A stretch of 64,000 nt of DNA from the IMG/VR virus record IMGVR_UViG_3300011423_000006, positions 32,001 to 96,000 of that record; one strand, given 5' to 3'. How positions within the stretch are numbered: position 1 is the stretch's first letter; each line of letters begins with the position of its first letter. This DNA is from a virus (taxonomy: Duplodnaviria; Caudoviricetes). This document shows, in pieces, positions 1,832 to 53,788 of the stretch. The notes beneath the pieces are model-generated. The model was not told the origin of the DNA, ran no database searches, and worked only from the letters and a program-made list of their open reading frames with translations. A program made the position numbers and the translations under genes.

Positions 1832-1859
1832 ATATTAAACCGAATCTCAATTAAATCAA
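1832..1859 (-). promoter_or_regulatory. sigma70-like promoter
   Basis: TTGATT-16nt-TAATAT, 8 nt before ATG 1823. Confidence 0.55.
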
Positions 1860-3600: not shown

Positions 3601-4164
3601 CTATTTCTCCGCCAAACTCAAGTCATTATTTAAAACCAATTCTACGTTCTTTTCCTCGATAAACACTCCGCATCCCTCTATTTTTAAACAGTTGTCATCA
3701 GGATAAACTTCTAATAAAACATGAGATTTGACGTTTTCTAAATAGGCAGGGCAATAATCATATTCACCCCAATAATCATAACCGCCGCTTCCTGATTGAT
3801 AAACACCGGTACGAACCACCTTTTTAGTAAAAACCCTAAAAATTTGATTTAAACATTCCTCTTTCCTCTCGACAAAAATTTTCCGTTCCGACCCTCCAAA
3901 ACCACGCTTCTTTACCGTCCGATATGCTAATCTATAAATAATATCATCATACCAATCCGCCTCATTCGTATTTAATAAAAATTCACTAGGTCCAGCCCCC
4001 AAACCAAAAGTATTTAAAAAATCTCTAATTAATTTAATTTGGTCTGGATTATTTCTAATTTCATCTACAACTATTTGCGGCGTAAGTGAATAACCCACCC
4101 TCGTCATAAACTCAGGATTAATAATTCTTACTTTATCTCCCGCTTTAAATACATGTTTTTTCAT
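3601..4164 (-). CDS. hypothetical protein
   Basis: 187-aa ORF; FKAGDKVRI N-terminus typical of phage proteins. Confidence 0.75.
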   Translation of the reverse strand: MKKHVFKAGDKVRIINPEFMTRVGYSLTPQIVVDEIRNNPDQIKLIRDFLNTFGLGAGPSEFLLNTNEADWYDDIIYRLAYRTVKKRGFGGSERKIFVERKEECLNQIFRVFTKKVVRTGVYQSGSGGYDYWGEYDYCPAYLENVKSHVLLEVYPDDNCLKIEGCGVFIEEKNVELVLNNDLSLAEK

Positions 4165-4760
4165 AACACTCTCGCGGGACTATAAATTTCCATTGTATTT
4201 AAATCAATATGAAAACTATTTTTATCACCTTTTTGTTTAATAAATTTTCTCATTGTATCCATTGTGCCGCCGTCTTTTAACAGGTCTTTTTCTCCAAAAG
4301 TCAAAGCAATTAAATAATCAGAATCCCGCGCCACCAAACTATTTCGCTCAAAAAATCCATTGCTCACTGTAATTTCCGCCCCTTTTCTAATCACTTCTCC
4401 AATTTGTCTCAACGACTTCCATTCATAAGCAGAAACCTTTTCACTAAATTTTAAATGATAATAATTGGCTGTTTTCGCTGTTTGGTCGCCTTCAAAATAT
4501 CCCAATTCTAAACTAAACTTACATGGTAAATGTAAAAGCAAATTATTAGCATATTGTCTGTAATATAAAGAAACTGCAATATGATCTGCCCAACCCGCGC
4601 CCCCCGAAACCAACGTTAAATTACCATCAAAACCCGAAATATTAAAAATCAAAGAATCAATGACTGATTGTGTCGCCGCCCTCATTTGCTCCCATTTTTC
4701 TTGATCCAGTTTGGCCGAGTCCGAGCCTCGACCAGCGCTCCCTATGATTCCTATATTCAT
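4161..4760 (-). CDS. SLOG superfamily protein
   Basis: IGIIGSAGR, VSGGAGWAD, FERNSLVA and GGT.DT motifs. Confidence 0.75.
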   Translation of the reverse strand: MNIGIIGSAGRGSDSAKLDQEKWEQMRAATQSVIDSLIFNISGFDGNLTLVSGGAGWADHIAVSLYYRQYANNLLLHLPCKFSLELGYFEGDQTAKTANYYHLKFSEKVSAYEWKSLRQIGEVIRKGAEITVSNGFFERNSLVARDSDYLIALTFGEKDLLKDGGTMDTMRKFIKQKGDKNSFHIDLNTMEIYSPARVL

Positions 4761-8698: not shown

Positions 8699-9829
8699 TT
8701 ATCCTACCGAAACTTCTCCCTTAATCGCTGGATGGCTCTCATAACCGTCAATTCGAATATCTTCAAATCTAAAATCAAAAATATTATTCACCTTGGGATT
8801 TAACCAAAGCTTCGGGAGTTGCATCGGCTCGCGAGTTAATTGTTCTTTTACTTGATCTAAATGATTCTGATAAATATGCAAATCGCCATAGGTATGAACA
8901 AATTCGCCCGGAATCATCCCTACCGCATGGGCAACCATGCTTGTGAGTAGACCGTAACTAGCGATATTAAATGGCACGCCTAAAAAAGTATCGCATGATC
9001 TTTGATATAACAAGCAATTAAGACGCCGTTTAGGAATACCAAGCTTATCACATTCTATTTCCCAAATTTCTGAATCAACTCCATTTAAAAGACCAATCTT
9101 AATATATTCATGTTTATTAGCCGCGATAATAATTCTTTCTTCTGCGGTTAATTCCTCCGTATTAAAATGAAATAAACAATGACACGGCGGCAAGGCGCAA
9201 TGATCTACCCAATAGGGATGCCACGCACTAACAATCATGCGACGATCATCTGGATTGGTTTTAAGCTTGTCGATAACTTTTTGAAGTTGGTCAACAGTTT
9301 TGACAAATTCAATCTTACCCCGTTGAATATTGTCTCCTATATAATTATTATCAATAATAGGGTTTGGGTTTCCATAAGGAAACGCCCTCCACATTTGACC
9401 ATAAGTGCCTTGTCCTAAGTTACCATGTTCTTTTACAAAATCTTGGTCGCTAGAAAGAGTTTTAAGGTAATGGATGAATTTATCTTTTGATAATGGCACT
9501 CCACTAATATCAGTCCAATCATCACGAACCAATCCCTGTTTAACTTTTTCGGTATATCGCCTATAGCAATCCCCATTCCAAATATTACACCCGTTATCGA
9601 CCAAATATTTAATATTAGTGTCGCCCTTAATAAACCACAATAATTCATGAATAATAGCTTTAACTGCCATTTTCTTGGTTGTTAATAAAGGAAAGCCCTC
9701 CTGCAAATTAAATCGCGCTTGTGCCCCGAATACTCCTATAGTATTCATCCCGGTCCTATTTTTCTTGACGCGCCCCTTTTCTAAAATAAGACGCAACAAT
9801 CTTTGATATTCTAGGTCTGTGTTATTCAT
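8699..9829 (-). CDS. thyA: thymidylate synthase
   Basis: FPLLTTKK, ELLWFIKG, ALPPCH, YQRSCD.FLGVPFNIASY and GDLHIY.NH motifs. Confidence 0.97.
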   Translation of the reverse strand: MNNTDLEYQRLLRLILEKGRVKKNRTGMNTIGVFGAQARFNLQEGFPLLTTKKMAVKAIIHELLWFIKGDTNIKYLVDNGCNIWNGDCYRRYTEKVKQGLVRDDWTDISGVPLSKDKFIHYLKTLSSDQDFVKEHGNLGQGTYGQMWRAFPYGNPNPIIDNNYIGDNIQRGKIEFVKTVDQLQKVIDKLKTNPDDRRMIVSAWHPYWVDHCALPPCHCLFHFNTEELTAEERIIIAANKHEYIKIGLLNGVDSEIWEIECDKLGIPKRRLNCLLYQRSCDTFLGVPFNIASYGLLTSMVAHAVGMIPGEFVHTYGDLHIYQNHLDQVKEQLTREPMQLPKLWLNPKVNNIFDFRFEDIRIDGYESHPAIKGEVSVG

Positions 9830-11293: not shown

Positions 11294-11824
11294 TTATTTC
11301 TTTGAACTGCCAAAACCCCCGTCCGCTCGCTTTGTCTCCCCTAACTCGTTAACAAATTCAAACTCCAAACTAACATTGTCCCGGCCCTTCATTTGAGCAA
11401 TCGCATCTCCATTTTTATAAATTTTTTCAATATTAATCCATCCCATAATTCCTTGAAACGGAACAACACGTAAATCTTCTGGTTGCCAGATATAACGGAA
11501 ACGACACAAAATCTCTCCTGTATAACCCGTATCAATCGTTCCCACACTATTACAAAGTAATAAATTATATTTAGAAAGCGAGGACCGAGGGAAAATCTCA
11601 ATATGCTTTTCTGCTTCAGGGGTCCAAAACAAATTAGTTCTATATTCAATAAAATCTACTCGTCTCCAAAGCCCTTTTGCTTCCCCGTTTTTTATTAATT
11701 TTCCTTCTTCATTTACTCCTGTTACCAACGGGTCTAAAACAGTAAAAATATCATACCCCGCATCATCATCATGCGCCCGCTCGGGAATTCTGATTCCATC
11801 AATATTCTTTAATAATAATTTCAT
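11294..11824 (-). CDS. dut: dUTPase (trimeric)
   Basis: AGYDI, PRSS, GTID.GY.GEI, IAQ and R..GGFGS motifs. Confidence 0.95.
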   Translation of the reverse strand: MKLLLKNIDGIRIPERAHDDDAGYDIFTVLDPLVTGVNEEGKLIKNGEAKGLWRRVDFIEYRTNLFWTPEAEKHIEIFPRSSLSKYNLLLCNSVGTIDTGYTGEILCRFRYIWQPEDLRVVPFQGIMGWINIEKIYKNGDAIAQMKGRDNVSLEFEFVNELGETKRADGGFGSSKK

Positions 11825-12171
11825 TTGTTATGTAAAAATACTCTTGCTATTAATTCGCCTCTACGAATTTCACATTTATCTCTCGGTCCAAAAAACCCAT
11901 TAAACGCGTTCGCCGGTTCAAGCGGACTATTGTTTTGCAATAAAATCCATTTACTATCTTCATCCTCATTAAAATTATGATTTAAAAGAAAAATGTTCTT
12001 TTTTAAGGATAAATCATAATCCGGTAATATGCAAACAATTTTTTCGGGTTTAAAAACAGACTTTAAAAAAATCTGAATTGTCTTGCCCGGATAAATTAAA
12101 AATGAATTTAAAGACGTAATATATCCTTTGCTTTTGTCAGGAGTCAGAGCAAACACGCCAAATTCATTCAC
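11821..12171 (-). CDS. degenerate dUTPase-like protein
   Basis: I.PG and L.N.S...IRRGELIA resemble the dUTPase scaffold, but the catalytic motifs are missing. Confidence 0.5.
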   Translation of the reverse strand: MNEFGVFALTPDKSKGYITSLNSFLIYPGKTIQIFLKSVFKPEKIVCILPDYDLSLKKNIFLLNHNFNEDEDSKWILLQNNSPLEPANAFNGFFGPRDKCEIRRGELIARVFLHNK

Positions 12172-12222
12172 TACACCAACTTTAAATCAATTTACAAAAA
12201 AACACAAGAAAAAACTTTTAAC

Positions 12223-12251
12223 TTGATTTTTAAAGAAAAACTAAATAAGAT
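12223..12251 (+). promoter_or_regulatory. sigma70-like promoter driving the non-coding region
   Basis: TTGATT-17nt-TAAGAT. Confidence 0.65.
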
Positions 12252-12257
12252 GTTTAA

Positions 12258-12810
12258 TGAATGCGAAAGGTCCGACCCCTTAGCATCAAATTGATCTTTG
12301 ATACAGAAAGTAGCTGAAACGCAATCTGCAAATAAATTCTGGGCTGGTTTAAAACCTTTTAAAGTTTTAAGTTACAGGGAATGAGTAGAGGAAACGGCAA
12401 AAAGTGAAAGCATTTATGCAAGTAGCGAGCCTTGATTATCTTGGTTTAAAACCCAATTTAATGAACGTTAAGACACTAAAGCCCGTAAAAAGAACTCCAA
12501 CAATGCGAAAGCAAGGTTACTTCGGGAGCATGGCGACCTCTGAGTTGGATGCCGTTGAATAACTAATCAAACGGTTTTTACCCCGTAAGGGGCCTGTACT
12601 CGAAAAAACTCTTAAAAATCCCACTTTCTAAAGACAAAGATTAATACATAACTTATTGACACTCAAGCGAGCGTAACCCTTAAAACGGTGAAGCGAATGG
12701 GAGAAGCGGGTTCAATAAGCCGTGAGATATTTAGTCTTAAAGAGGCTTCTTAATAGGATTTTTCTATTCCTCCCTCGAAATAGTATTCACTATGGAGTTA
12801 AGAGTTTAAT
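12258..12810 (+). ncRNA. large structured ncRNA candidate (~550 nt), class unknown
   Basis: no ORF of 60 aa or more; nested helices TACAGG/CCTGTA, GTAAAAA/TTTTTAC, TCCAAC/GTTGGA, AAACTCTTAA/TTAAGAGTTT, CTTATTGA/TCAATAAG; GAAA, GTAA and cTTCGg tetraloops; own promoter. Confidence 0.7.
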
Positions 12811-12900
12811 CATTTTTAATTCCAAACCATTGTACTTGAATATTTTAATAATTTGAATTTAATAATGAGCCAAATTGTGTGTACTAATTCAAAATAAGTG

Positions 12901-12929
12901 TTGATTTAAAATTATAAATCGTTTAATAT
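12901..12929 (+). promoter_or_regulatory. sigma70-like promoter for the rnhA operon
   Basis: TTGATT-17nt-TAATAT, 9 nt before the ATG. Confidence 0.6.
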
Positions 12930-12938
12930 TATTCAATA

Positions 12939-13361
12939 ATGAAAGTCGTAGATATCTATACCGATGGGTCTAGAAATTATAACGCTACAATTACATCTTG
13001 GGGGTTTGTTGTATTGGACTCAGGGGCAATTATTGAAGAAAGAAATGGAATTCTAACTGGTCCAATTACTATTATGTATCAAATCGGAGGCGAATGCCAA
13101 GCTGTAATAGAAGCTTTAAAATATTGTAAACAAAATAATTTTAAATGCGATATTTATTTTGATTATATTGGCCTTAAATGTTGGGTAAACGATTTGTTCG
13201 GAGAGAAGCCTTGGCAAACCAAAAACCAATGGACCAAAGCATATCGCGAGGAACTTTTATCTCTAAAAGAATTTTTGAATAATATGATAAAAGTGAAGGG
13301 ACATAGTAATAACGAATTTAATGAGTATGCTGATTTATTAGCGAAAAAAGCTCTTGAATGA
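12939..13361 (+). CDS. rnhA: ribonuclease HI
   Basis: IYTDGS, GE..A, IYFDY and KVKGHS....NE.AD.LAK motifs. Confidence 0.93.
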   Translation: MKVVDIYTDGSRNYNATITSWGFVVLDSGAIIEERNGILTGPITIMYQIGGECQAVIEALKYCKQNNFKCDIYFDYIGLKCWVNDLFGEKPWQTKNQWTKAYREELLSLKEFLNNMIKVKGHSNNEFNEYADLLAKKALE

Positions 13362-13759
13362 ATAGAAAATATAGATTACGAAAGCTTGATTATAGTTATT
13401 TGGATACTTGGATAACTAGAAGCAAAGAATTGAAAAAATTAAAAATAACAACTTACACCGAGTATTTAAAATCTAGTATTTGGAAGGAAATTAAAGACAA
13501 GGCACAAACTAGGCCCCATTATCAAAAATGCTTTCTCTGCGGTTCTTTTGAAAATATTGAATTGCACCATAGAAGATATAAATTTTTACATTTATCAATT
13601 TTAAGAAATATTATTCCGTTATGTGAGAACCATCATGAACAAGTCCATAGTTTGGCTAAAACCAAACAAATGAGCGTTGGAAGGGCAACCGGAAAAATTA
13701 TCAAACGATGGAAAAAAGAAGGAAACAAACTTTCTTGGACTAATAAGGAGAATTTATGA
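13358..13759 (+). CDS. HNH endonuclease
   Basis: CxxC...LHH..Y...LC..HH..VH. Confidence 0.85.
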   Translation: MNRKYRLRKLDYSYLDTWITRSKELKKLKITTYTEYLKSSIWKEIKDKAQTRPHYQKCFLCGSFENIELHHRRYKFLHLSILRNIIPLCENHHEQVHSLAKTKQMSVGRATGKIIKRWKKEGNKLSWTNKENL

Positions 13760-14352
13760 TTATAGGAATAGCCGGGGTCGCGACATGTGGAAAAAACTTG
13801 TTCGCCACAAAATTAAAAGAAAAACTAACTAAAAAAGGACTAATTTGTAACGAATATTCTTTTGCACGACAACTAAGGGTGGAATTAGCTCCTGTTTTAA
13901 AGACAAATTTTGATTTAGATGTTTGGTCCCAAGATATTAAAGAAAAACAAAAATTCCGGGCGCTTATGACGGTTTGGGCGGATATTCATCGGAAGGAAAC
14001 TAGGGGCGCGTATTTTTGGAAGAAAACTCAAGAATTAATTAAATCCGAAGGTAATGAAAAAAATATAAATATCATTACAGATTTGCGTTTTGCTGAATAT
14101 GAAGGAACTGATGAAATAGATTTTGTTCGAAAAAATGGAGTGGCGATTCATCTTCGTAAATATGAAATTGTGCGTGGGAAAAAGATTTTTGTAAAACCCG
14201 CTAATGATTTTGAAAAATTTAACGATCCTTTAGTTAAGAAGGGCGCGAATATTAGAATAGATTGGCCAGATGCGCGAAAAGTTCCTTATTCCGTTGATTT
14301 GGATAGTTATGTAGACCAATTCATTCACAAATATGAACGAAGCTTTAAATGA
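13756..14352 (+). CDS. deoxynucleoside monophosphate kinase
   Basis: IIGIAG....GK, SFA..L and IITDLRF.E motifs. Confidence 0.85.
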   Translation: MIIGIAGVATCGKNLFATKLKEKLTKKGLICNEYSFARQLRVELAPVLKTNFDLDVWSQDIKEKQKFRALMTVWADIHRKETRGAYFWKKTQELIKSEGNEKNINIITDLRFAEYEGTDEIDFVRKNGVAIHLRKYEIVRGKKIFVKPANDFEKFNDPLVKKGANIRIDWPDARKVPYSVDLDSYVDQFIHKYERSFK

Positions 14353-14728: not shown

Positions 14729-15290
14729 AAAATTAGTTGAATTAATTCAAACAGAAAAATCCGACGAAGCGTTGCAAATTTTAATACAACGACATGGAGC
14801 GTTGTGCATTAACATTTTACAAAGATATTCTCTAGCTTTAACCGAGCGGGGACTTAATATGCAAGATGTTTATAGTGATAAAAACTATCTTATTTATAAA
14901 GCCGCTTTAGGTTTTAAAAGTGGAAAGAAAAATAGAATTTCGACTTGGATTGGTAGTTATACTCGTTATTACTGTCTAACTTTGTTAAGTAAGAAGGAGC
15001 CGTTTTTAGAAAAGGGTTTGTATTCTGTTTATTTTGAGACGTTTAAAGCATCTTCACCGGATGATGAATCTATAGATCGTATTTTTAATATTTTATCATT
15101 AATAAAAGACGAACGGATTAATAAGATTTTTCGCTTGCGCTATTCCAGCCCCGGAAAAAGAAAGGTTTCATGGAAGGAAATTGGGAAAACTCTCGGATTA
15201 TCTTCACAAACTATTATTAATTTACATAAACGAGGGGTTAAGTTATTACAAAAGAGATTAAAAAACGAAGAAATATTTGACAAGATTTAA
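14703..15290 (+). CDS. phage sigma70-family RNA polymerase sigma factor
   Basis: region 2 (LI.RH...AA..F......STWI) and region 4 HTH (LRY...SWKEIG..LGLS). Confidence 0.85.
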   Translation: MSGLKLSDEKLVELIQTEKSDEALQILIQRHGALCINILQRYSLALTERGLNMQDVYSDKNYLIYKAALGFKSGKKNRISTWIGSYTRYYCLTLLSKKEPFLEKGLYSVYFETFKASSPDDESIDRIFNILSLIKDERINKIFRLRYSSPGKRKVSWKEIGKTLGLSSQTIINLHKRGVKLLQKRLKNEEIFDKI

Positions 15291-15324
15291 AAAAGGAATT
15301 AATATAATAACATAGGTAAATTTT

Positions 15325-21352: not shown

Positions 21353-21394
21353 TTCTTCTTGATTCTTTCTTTAAAATCAATTATTATATTAATA

Positions 21395-41478: not shown

Positions 41479-41526
41479 GTTTCATTTTATCTTGAGTTTC
41501 TGTAAAGTTTAACATATAATTTAACT

Positions 41527-49002: not shown

Positions 49003-49705
49003 ACTATATAATCAGGATTTTTTAATTGGAGCGGAGTTGTTGGATGATGAGTCTATTAACTTAATTGTAACAAGTCCCCCCTATAAAGACTCGGATGGAT
49101 TTTCTTATCCTTGGATGCGAAAGATATGGGTAGAAATGAGACGGCTTTTATCAAAGGACGGTTTAATATTTTTGAATTTTGGTCATTTAGCTGAAGATAA
49201 ATTTCGGCCTTTTAAAGTGTGTGAACAAGCTTTGGAATTGGGATTTCAACTTAACGAAACAATTACATGGAAGAAAAATCATTATCGACCGATTCAGGGC
49301 AAGAAAAGACTGAATAATTTAACTGAGTTTATTTTTGTTTTACATAAGGGAAAAATGAGGGATTTGGACCGATTAGCCATTGGAGTTCCTTATAAAGATA
49401 AAAGTAATGTTAAAAGATTCGCTAATGGACGAGATTTAAAATGTCGTGGCAATCATTGGGAAATTAATTATGAAACTATTCAAAATAAAAAGGACAAACT
49501 TCATAATGATCGATTTCCTTTAGAATTGCCTTTAAATTGTATTAAATTAGCGAATTTAAAAGAAGACGATACAATTTGTGATCCGTTTTTAGGAAGTGGC
49601 ACAACTGCTTGCGCCGCAAAGATTTGCAATAAAAAATTTATAGGGTTTGAAATCAATAACAAGAATTTTGAGATTGCTTTAAAAAGAATTCTTGACTTAC
49701 CTTGA
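48986..49705 (+). CDS. N4-C/N6-A DNA methyltransferase (beta class)
   Basis: TSPPY followed by DPFLGSGTT. Confidence 0.92.
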   Translation: MQELYKLYNQDFLIGAELLDDESINLIVTSPPYKDSDGFSYPWMRKIWVEMRRLLSKDGLIFLNFGHLAEDKFRPFKVCEQALELGFQLNETITWKKNHYRPIQGKKRLNNLTEFIFVLHKGKMRDLDRLAIGVPYKDKSNVKRFANGRDLKCRGNHWEINYETIQNKKDKLHNDRFPLELPLNCIKLANLKEDDTICDPFLGSGTTACAAKICNKKFIGFEINNKNFEIALKRILDLP

Positions 49706-49731
49706 GAATGTAGTTATTATTAAAACAGAAT

Positions 49732-52565: not shown

Positions 52566-53750
52566 ATGCATTTGGTAGAACGCTATTCGTTAGATTCTTC
52601 TTCTAAAATTGATAAACCATTTATTTATCAAAAATTTTATCCTTTGGTTGTAGATAAATTCATTACTTTTCAGCCGGTTTCTAAATATGGGTCTAAAAAT
52701 TACGATTATTGGGCCGATGTATTATTTATTTTAGAGCCAATTTTAAAGAAAAGCGGCATTCAGATCGTCCAAATTGGAGGCCCTAACGAAAAAGGATTCG
52801 ATGGGATTTATCAAACCCAAGGACAAACCAATTTAGGTCAAGTTAGCTATATAATAGACAAGGGGCTGTTGCATTTGGGGGCCGATTCGTTCGGAACTCA
52901 TATGGCAAGTTATTTAGATAAAAAAATTGTTACTATTTATTCTAATAACTTTGTTGAATGTGTTAAGCCTTATTGGGGCGATGCAAATAATCATATTTTG
53001 CTAGAGCCCGAACGTAATGGCCAAAAGCCAAGTTTTTCCGCCGAAGAAAATCCTAAAACAATTAATACAATCAAACCCGAAAAAATAGCCGAAGCAGTTT
53101 GTAAATTGCTTAACTTGGATTATGATTACCCCTTTGAAACGGTATATCACGGAGCCTTTTTTACTCAACCCAAGATGTTAGAAATGGTTCCTGATTTTGC
53201 CGTCAATGTATCTAATTTAGGGGTCGATACAATTATTGCTAGAATGGATTTTAATTTTGACGAAACTATTTTGGCTAATCAATTAAGAGCTTCTAATTGC
53301 GTCGTGGTTACAGACCGGCCTATTTCTGAGTCCTTGATTTTACAATTTCGCGATAGAATTAAGCAAGTTGTTTACGATATCAAAGAAAATAATGATCCAA
53401 AATTTGCAATGTTTTTGAATAAAATGGGTATTAATTTCGGATTAATCAGCACGTTACCCGAAGAAACATTGAATAAATTTAAATTAGATTATTTGGATAT
53501 TGGTTTGATTCATAGAAAAGATGTTCCTCAAAAAATTGAGCATACTACTTTTAGTCATTTGAATATCAAGGACTTATATTATCGAACTAATAAAGTTACA
53601 TTGGGGCGTCAAAAAATTTATAATTCAAAAGCTGCATGGTTAACTAATGTGCCGAGCCCGAATTTTGTTCCCGCTTTTATGCCCGCCATTGATTCCCCGG
53701 CGTTTTTTGAAGAAATCGATTATTTATATATTGTTAAAATAAAGAATTGA
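52566..53750 (+). CDS. GT9-like glycosyltransferase
   Basis: K.YDYW, VQIG, HLGADSF..H.A and I..IKPE motifs. Confidence 0.8.
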   Translation: MHLVERYSLDSSSKIDKPFIYQKFYPLVVDKFITFQPVSKYGSKNYDYWADVLFILEPILKKSGIQIVQIGGPNEKGFDGIYQTQGQTNLGQVSYIIDKGLLHLGADSFGTHMASYLDKKIVTIYSNNFVECVKPYWGDANNHILLEPERNGQKPSFSAEENPKTINTIKPEKIAEAVCKLLNLDYDYPFETVYHGAFFTQPKMLEMVPDFAVNVSNLGVDTIIARMDFNFDETILANQLRASNCVVVTDRPISESLILQFRDRIKQVVYDIKENNDPKFAMFLNKMGINFGLISTLPEETLNKFKLDYLDIGLIHRKDVPQKIEHTTFSHLNIKDLYYRTNKVTLGRQKIYNSKAAWLTNVPSPNFVPAFMPAIDSPAFFEEIDYLYIVKIKN

Positions 53751-53788
53751 CTTGGGTTTTAAAATAAGCTATTATTAAAATAGATTTT

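Follow-up and report, generated by a model that had tools for sequence, protein, structure and literature searches.

The largest ORF-free gap of this phage probably encodes a rightward-transcribed non-coding RNA that represents a new and fast-evolving family and has its functional core at about 12431-12625; on sequence comparison, we have moderate confidence in this reading. The conserved extent is about 90-200 nt and lies in the same gene slot of distant relatives. A weak candidate from a single genome is now tied to a conserved slot in hundreds of related uncultured phages, and this slot holds several unrelated-looking RNA families, one of them clearly structured with strong covariation. The window, i.e., the whole stretch of 64,000 nucleotides that was analysed, corresponds to bases 32001-96000 of a 124-kb IMG/VR record that is 64% complete. 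A 213-kb contig of the same phage is found in the protein database, and DNA of the phage is present in freshwater-sediment metagenomes. The region of the gap contains the following features.

12172-12938, no strand: divergent ORF-free intergenic region, with the dut, dcd and thyA block leading leftward from it and the rnhA, kinase-like, sigma and GT block rightward
11821-12171, minus strand: 116-aa ORF, lineage-specific left neighbour
12939-13361, plus strand: rnhA (Pfam RNase_H), lineage-specific neighbour

The 767-bp ORF-free gap claimed in the earlier note is real and is the largest of the 124-kb record. Its six frames are non-coding and stop-dense, the longest stop-to-stop frame inside it being 59 aa; a 60-aa frame starting at 12112 overlaps its left edge. 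When the six-frame ORFs of the gap were searched for coding remnants, there were no Pfam matches and the PHROGs matches were at chance level. The strand switch claimed for the same place was confirmed, with 69 minus-strand genes giving way to 53 plus-strand genes at the gap. The cumulative GC-skew of the whole 124-kb record has its minimum on the gap and not elsewhere, and skew here tracks gene orientation. An excess of A and G on the plus strand starts at the left edge of the gap, and the G excess within the gap is weak. The G+C content is 0.42 at 12400-12700 vs. 0.29-0.33 alongside, and falls to 23% in the AT-rich stretch 12800-12999. No dispersed repeat of the gap was found elsewhere in the genome, and no iteron array was found in the gap, which has just two 12-mer copies 97 nt apart. 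The sequence reported to occur twice does so (GGTTTAAAACC, at 12346 and 12443). Three short direct repeats were also observed: AATGCGAAAG (12260-12269/12502-12511), TTTAATGAA (12253-12261/12457-12465) and TGGTTTAAAACC (12345-12356/12442-12453). These connect the lineage-specific 5' extension with the conserved core, and might be left over from an old partial duplication.

The earlier note had described the gap as an ornate structured RNA of about 550 nt. On the single sequence alone this is unsupported, because the folding energies are at shuffle level and neither Rfam nor ARAGORN gave a match. Against dinucleotide shuffles, the minimum free energy of 12250-12815 had z-scores of +0.27 on the plus strand and -0.45 on the minus strand, and that of 12373-12598 had a z-score of -0.53. 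Values of -0.47 for 12485-12598, +0.12 to +0.76 for the remaining sub-domains, and +1.4 for 12259-12600 were obtained against shuffles, so the claimed fold is nowhere more stable than shuffled sequence (z +1.4 to -0.53). The complementary segments that had been listed all exist, CCGTT being one base off (at 12552-56). Two stable tetraloop hairpins survived a strict count (p ~0.02), and a perfect 10-bp inverted repeat within 767 AT-rich bases is, by our estimate, roughly what chance would give. Rfam 15, which includes ROOL, GOLLD, HEARO, 6S and the group I/II introns, gave no match at gathering score in the whole window and chance matches only at E up to 10 in 12100-12960, and ARAGORN found nothing. 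The reported lack of a match to RNase P, tmRNA or introns was thus borne out. A search for an intrinsic terminator in the gap found none.

The case for an RNA comes from comparison with relatives, which were detected only via collinear common words. The parts of the proposed transcript are as follows.

12259-12430, plus strand: lineage-specific 5' extension with small hairpins AAGG/CCUU (~12268-12281) and AUCAAA/UUUGAU and a stem at 12345-12374; no counterpart in relatives
12431-12625, plus strand: candidate conserved RNA core, common to L237, L229/L233/L234 and L244, with anchors AAGCCCGTAAAAAG (12479-12492), GTTACTTCGGGAGC (12516-12529) and AAATCCCAC (12616-12624)
12482-85 / 12523-26, plus strand: invariant CCCG / CGGG (RNAalifold, 4/4 unchanged)
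12496-12501/12544-12549, plus strand: helix UCCAAC/GUUGGA, enclosing the hairpin U-GC-GAAA-GC-A at 12504-12513
12626-12815, plus strand: 3' stretch lacking conservation, which includes the 10-bp inverted repeat (12606-15/12798-807) and, near 12773-12815, a weak hairpin and a U-run

Relatives of the core occur in the same slot in L237, in L229/L233/L234, and in L244. L237, whose RNA occupies a 547-bp divergent gap, has AAGCCCGTAAAAAG and GTTACTTCGGGAGC as two exact collinear 14-mers, 45 nt apart vs. 37 nt in the window; this 8-nt difference in spacing means that no reading frame is kept. L229/L233/L234 have the 13-mer GCCCGTAAAAAGA and the 9-mer AAATCCCAC, collinear with the window. A scan of prokaryote genomes with the two anchors gave 15 matches, about the chance number, among which the only true homologue was L244, a 2.2-kb contig binned with a Marinimicrobia MAG; against the family profile it reaches 27 bits. 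Positions 12474-12598 of the window correspond to L237:3887-4013, L244:1624-1747 and L229:~3985-4110. When the window was left out of the profile, the best match in the 64 kb was 12476-12562 on the plus strand (E 0.0018). The covariance model R3, made from a single sequence, that of the window with the structure in the earlier note, ranked L244 first among the non-self matches in 45 kb (17.4 bits, E 0.0037), followed by L237 (14.9 bits, E 0.02), and in 1.09 Mb L237 was still the top non-self match (E 0.48). The family is small, with just four lineages and one covarying helix, and its anchors GCCCGUAAAAAG and AYUUCGGGA are 36-45 nt apart. It is the plus strand that carries the L229 and L237 promoters and the GAAA loops. 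In the L229 gap, AAGCTGGCAGTTCC was seen twice about 200 nt apart, at ~4110-4125 in the conserved core and at ~4330-4345 just before the next gene.

The structure of the core is conserved in part. The UCCAAC/GUUGGA helix has the equivalents CUAAUC/GAUUAG in L237 (8 bp in all, p 0.005 vs. shuffles) and CGCAAC/GUUGCG in L244, with its offsets from both anchors unchanged across the three sequences, while L229 keeps just AGUC/GACU (4 bp, p 0.72). It starts 1-5 nt after the first anchor and ends 15-24 nt after the second, with compensatory changes, and is weak in L229. The small hairpin UGC-GAAA-GCA becomes GUC-GAAA-GAC in L244, AGGGU-UAAUA-ACCCU in L237 and GGAU-CUAAUAA-AUCC in L229, its position staying constant while its stem letters change. 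Thus, among the helices proposed in the earlier note, TCCAAC/GTTGGA and the GAAA hairpin are found in the relatives and GTAAAAA/TTTTTAC is partly retained, but CCGTT/AACGG and CCCC-GTAA-GGGG are disrupted. Opposite CCTGTA, the alignment has other letters in L237 and L229, and the 5' 170 nt and 3' 190 nt of the proposed transcript have no alignable counterpart in relatives. The invariant CCCG and CGGG could pair, which would give a pseudoknot with the UCCAAC/GUUGGA helix; they never vary and so show no covariation. The conserved glycosyltransferase of the core-bearing lineages is about 53% identical, a distance at which neutral DNA would be expected to be saturated. Retention of the core at this distance argues for function, and the compensatory changes in the helix argue for an RNA over a DNA site.

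The slot itself was defined by gene order. The IMG/VR genomes G001, G003 and G005 have DnaE identities of 37-39% and long synteny with this phage, and a glycosyltransferase alignment of these three and the window was used as the query for further loci, of which the best 80 of 315 were kept. In most of these 80 loci, the order is dcd and dut leftward, the gap, and then k198 kinase-like, sigma, o97, GT and o130 rightward. Homologues of rnhA, o116, o133 and o131 occur in none of them (0 in the best 80 of 315). Because these genes are missing where the surrounding order is kept, the immediate neighbours in the window are, judged by gene order, insertions specific to this lineage at a junction that is otherwise conserved. 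Among 5.8 billion proteins, none is homologous to the 116-aa ORF, whose 90% cluster consists of start-codon variants only. The nearest RNase H homologues (39-46% identity) stand directly behind another gene, with no gap, in four different contexts. In G005, the closest relative by synteny, the junction is just 150 bp, suggesting that the RNA is dispensable.

Other searches added no relatives. No close isolate was found when the glycosyltransferase and DnaE were compared with GenBank phages, and scans with one protein each (rnhA, the dUTPase-like and the kinase-like ORF) gave no close relatives. No relative of the gap was found in the DNA of GenBank phages, in 80 ThyA-anchored IMG/VR loci or in five whole related records. 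Pattern scans of IMG/VR with three motifs, taken from the gap or from G003, returned chance matches or already known records only, and an 18-mer from the 5' hairpin gave 17 chance matches in JGI metagenomes, among them L117, which lies inside a bacterial gene. Local alignment of the whole gap with the gaps of 16 relatives was not above shuffles (best z 2.3).

The slot is often occupied by a predicted RNA in this large family of uncultured phages, with at least three other families there, here called F, D and E, all absent from Rfam. At the same place, G003 has a divergent gap of 810 bp; its core folds at z -3.26 and is homologous to sequence upstream of the sigma gene in G001 (E 2.5e-16). Iterated profile searches found this element in eight more of the 80 loci (best 80 of 315). 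The elements of the three families are listed below.

L154:14839-15309, plus strand: family F RNA
L135:4127-4524, minus strand: family F RNA
L220:4570-4965: family F RNA
L223:942-1315, minus strand: family F RNA
L239:4024-4394: family F RNA
L213:2121-2504, minus strand: family F RNA
L210:4027-4397: family F RNA
L226:3554-3929: family F RNA
L167:3552-4006 and L236:3583-4054: family D, conserved non-coding element of ~330 nt, located exactly in the divergent gap between dut and the kinase-like gene and preceded by a conserved TTGACA promoter
L197:4648-4998, and also L198, L202, L204 and L215: family E, promoter-driven, with GNRA-capped hairpins (five loci)

Family F, for which the membership set was G003, G001, L210, L213, L220, L223, L226 and L239, has weaker members in L196 and L199. 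Its RNA measures about 370 nt, with a terminator at the end that consists of a CCCCC-loop-GGGGG hairpin and a U run. Compensatory changes were found in 15 of the 29 predicted pairs, and the four members tested against shuffles had z-scores of -2.4 to -4.4. The RNA can be on either strand, at a distance of 0-2 kb from the strand switch; a co-oriented gene always comes next, within 50-100 nt and directly preceded by the terminator, and this downstream gene varies between relatives. Family D comprises 13 loci, the further 11 being L163, L172, L189, L195, L206, L209, L219, L224, L232, L235 and L238. The 3' block of family E matches the 3' part of the L229 gap (L229:4174-4227; E 2e-5 in a small database), hinting that the slot RNAs may be modular and partly related.

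Membership of the window in these families was also examined. The test for family F consisted of a 5' model (R2, the P2 helices), a central model (R1, the CCCGGCGUGUUGUGG...ACUGUAA.GAG core) and the terminal CCCCC/GGGGG terminator. With these two models, the gap scored at best 6.6 and 6.7 bits, at E 0.2-0.35 over 851 nt, the family F terminator is missing from the gap, and the window was rejected as a member. Profiles of D, E and F gave no matches on the window, which was likewise rejected as a member of any of the three. Similar to the putative RNA of the window, those of families F, D and E lie in the same slot with a similar sigma-70-like promoter in front and have small GNRA-capped hairpins, and the 3' block of family E is common to L229, a member of the window's family. 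They differ in fold, five of the six members tested having z-scores of -2.4 to -4.4 whereas the window is not below shuffles, and the F models reach at best 6.7 bits on it. A tentative idea, which we consider less probable than its opposite, is that a widespread family of uncultured phages from water and sediment, with genomes of 130-210 kb, a DnaE-type replisome and a sigma factor of their own, reserves this slot for modular, very fast-evolving structured RNAs of 200-450 nt. In this view, F, D, E and the window's family, with patchy common blocks, would be variants of one new class of early phage RNA, whose rapid change would come from serving as a decoy or protein-binding RNA in an arms race with the host.

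Transcription of the gap was assessed from promoter-like sites, which are listed below.

12223-12251, plus strand: promoter-like site TTGATT-17-TAAGAT, a weak member of the TTGAyw-N17-TAWTAT class; predicted start at ~12257-12259
12901-12929, plus strand: promoter-like site TTGATT-17-TAATAT of rnhA, ending 9 nt before the ATG
12901-12929, 15277-15305, 21359-21387, 41492-41520, 49692-49720 and 53747-53775, plus strand, and 1832-1859, minus strand: TTGAyw-N17-TAWTAT sites

Copies of the recurrent motif TTGAyw-N17-TAWTAT stop 6-20 nt short of start codons, and few Shine-Dalgarno motifs are found in this phage; together, these features suggest very short or absent leaders. The separate rnhA promoter claimed at 12901 is present as a promoter-like site. 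The letters of the promoter claimed at 12223 are also there, but the site is weak, with TAAGAT as a poorer second hexamer and a consensus score of 8/12, and was unlisted by a generic sigma-70 scan. The L229 and L237 promoters, read from the alignment as TTGACA-18-TAGGAT and TTGACC-17-TATACA, lie about 85 nt 5' of the first anchor. The stretch of the window aligned to them (~12394-12416) is a poor promoter match, and the 12223 site is 170 nt further upstream. The transcript of the window probably starts further upstream than those of its relatives, at 12223. In G003 and G001, a conserved promoter-like TATATTTG box was seen after the RNA, which we take to be of the Bacteroidota -7 type.

A second strain was recovered in contigs of sequencing run X2, which are short and leave 12388-13900 without cover. 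It is 98% identical at 12127-12290 and then diverges with indels, while its flanking genes have 89-100% identity. Two 1-nt deletions, at 12348 and 12369, fall one in each arm of the 12345-12374 hairpin, and the stem stays paired. Past 12290, the X2 contig has letters resembling a second, diverged copy of the first hairpin (AAGGGTCCAAACCCCTTTT).

In the reading that we favour, the core would consist of two invariant strands (GCCCGUAAAAAG and AYUUCGGGA), one covarying helix of 6-8 bp, and a small GNRA-type hairpin. It would occupy the RNA slot of a divergent early control region, between a dUTPase/dCMP-deaminase side and a kinase-like/sigma-factor/glycosyltransferase side, and may be transcribed early from the 12223 site or from a weaker site nearer the core. 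The product would be a stand-alone RNA, presumably neither leader nor primer, that might bind a protein partner via its invariant strands; the 5' 170 nt and the 3' 190 nt would be lineage-specific additions or spacer. We prefer action in trans, given that relatives differ in the downstream gene and in the strand. The claim of a new phage non-coding RNA is supported in kind: the core is conserved with compensatory changes, and related phages have structured, terminator-ended RNAs in the slot. A large RNA of about 550 nt in the ROOL/GOLLD class is not supported, given a conserved length of about 90-150 nt, a shuffle-level fold, and the loss of most of the proposed helices.

This variation in downstream gene, and the occurrence of the RNA on either side of the strand switch, also speak against a cis-acting 5' leader of the rightward early operon, which would act by attenuation or by processive antitermination into rnhA, the kinase-like gene and sigma, as HK022 put RNA does. 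A leader would fit the position just downstream of an early-type promoter, the co-oriented operon, and the lack of a terminator between the RNA and rnhA, and in relatives all family F RNAs have a co-oriented gene within 50-100 nt with the terminator right before it. However, a promoter-like site of its own precedes rnhA and stops 9 nt short of the ATG, and the TATATTTG box follows the RNA in G003 and G001; we consider a leader unlikely. It is equally unlikely that the gap is mostly spacer, either a divergent promoter and regulator region with DNA sites for a phage or host regulator, or a decaying, functionless remnant of a slot RNA. The single sequence has no thermodynamic signal, no terminator and a poor internal promoter, the second strain is 98% identical in the promoter part (12127-12290) and diverges with indels in the part that follows, and the slot is empty in G005. 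Against this, two exact 14-mers and compensatory helix changes at ~53% protein identity argue for ongoing selection on RNA pairing, and the paired deletions keep a stem in the second strain.

The earlier note had also proposed a replication origin, at which the transcript would prime DNA synthesis on the ColE1-RNAII model and the adjacent RNase H would process the primer. The T4 oriF/oriG R-loop origins are a close analogue. We regard this as the least probable of the alternatives. The gap coincides with the GC-skew minimum and with the main divergence in gene orientation, so an origin near the strand switch is conceivable. The gap is also the largest non-coding stretch, the AT-rich 12800-12999 lies 3' of a promoter, and DnaB-, DnaG- and DnaE-like proteins are encoded with no recognised initiator. 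However, skew follows the coding strand and so cannot separate replication from transcription, the G excess on the plus strand of the gap is weak, and the two 12-mer copies do not make an iteron array. Since rnhA has no homologue in the 80 syntenic loci (best 80 of 315), the primer model loses its main argument, that of linkage; RNase H homologues elsewhere have no upstream gap. Homologous or analogous RNAs lie up to ~2 kb from the switch, on either strand, and are terminator-ended. The primer proposal was thus mostly set aside.

Comparison with known systems gave partial likenesses to the favoured RNA. ROOL and GOLLD are also phage-borne non-coding RNAs of unknown function in large intergenic regions. 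They are 580-800 nt long, in contrast to the ~90-200 nt conserved here with a shuffle-level fold, and the window has no sequence or structure match to them at E up to 10 and no tRNA neighbourhood. The ColE1 RNA II primer and T4 oriF/oriG are promoter-plus-R-loop origins. The window resembles them in a promoter reading into a non-coding stretch at a switch of strand composition, with RNase H adjoining in this one genome. It differs from them in that the RNase H linkage is not conserved and the RNAs of relatives are terminator-ended and on either strand, and neither an antisense RNA I-like unit nor a G/C anchor was seen. HK022 put RNAs, of ~70 nt with two stem-loops, are cis-acting antitermination leaders. 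They share with the window a structured RNA immediately 3' of divergent early phage promoters, and differ in that the downstream gene of the window has its own promoter-like site, a comparison made by description only.

To our knowledge, few structured RNAs without an assigned function are described from phages, and new biology has come out of each class that was characterised. The families described here provide a comparative set for finding the role of an early, promoter-proximal phage RNA. The comparison also corrects two over-readings, in which hand-picked helices were at chance level and a functional link was drawn from a gene neighbour that is not conserved.

Two further observations concern neighbouring sequences. 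The related phage contig L162 carries a group I intron at 12191-12422 (RF00028, 57.5 bits, above the gathering score). In the window, the thymidylate synthase at 8699-9829 on the minus strand is 376 aa long and matches a 266-position Pfam model end to end, and so carries an insertion of ~100 aa; its homologues in 262 IMG/VR contigs have the same length.
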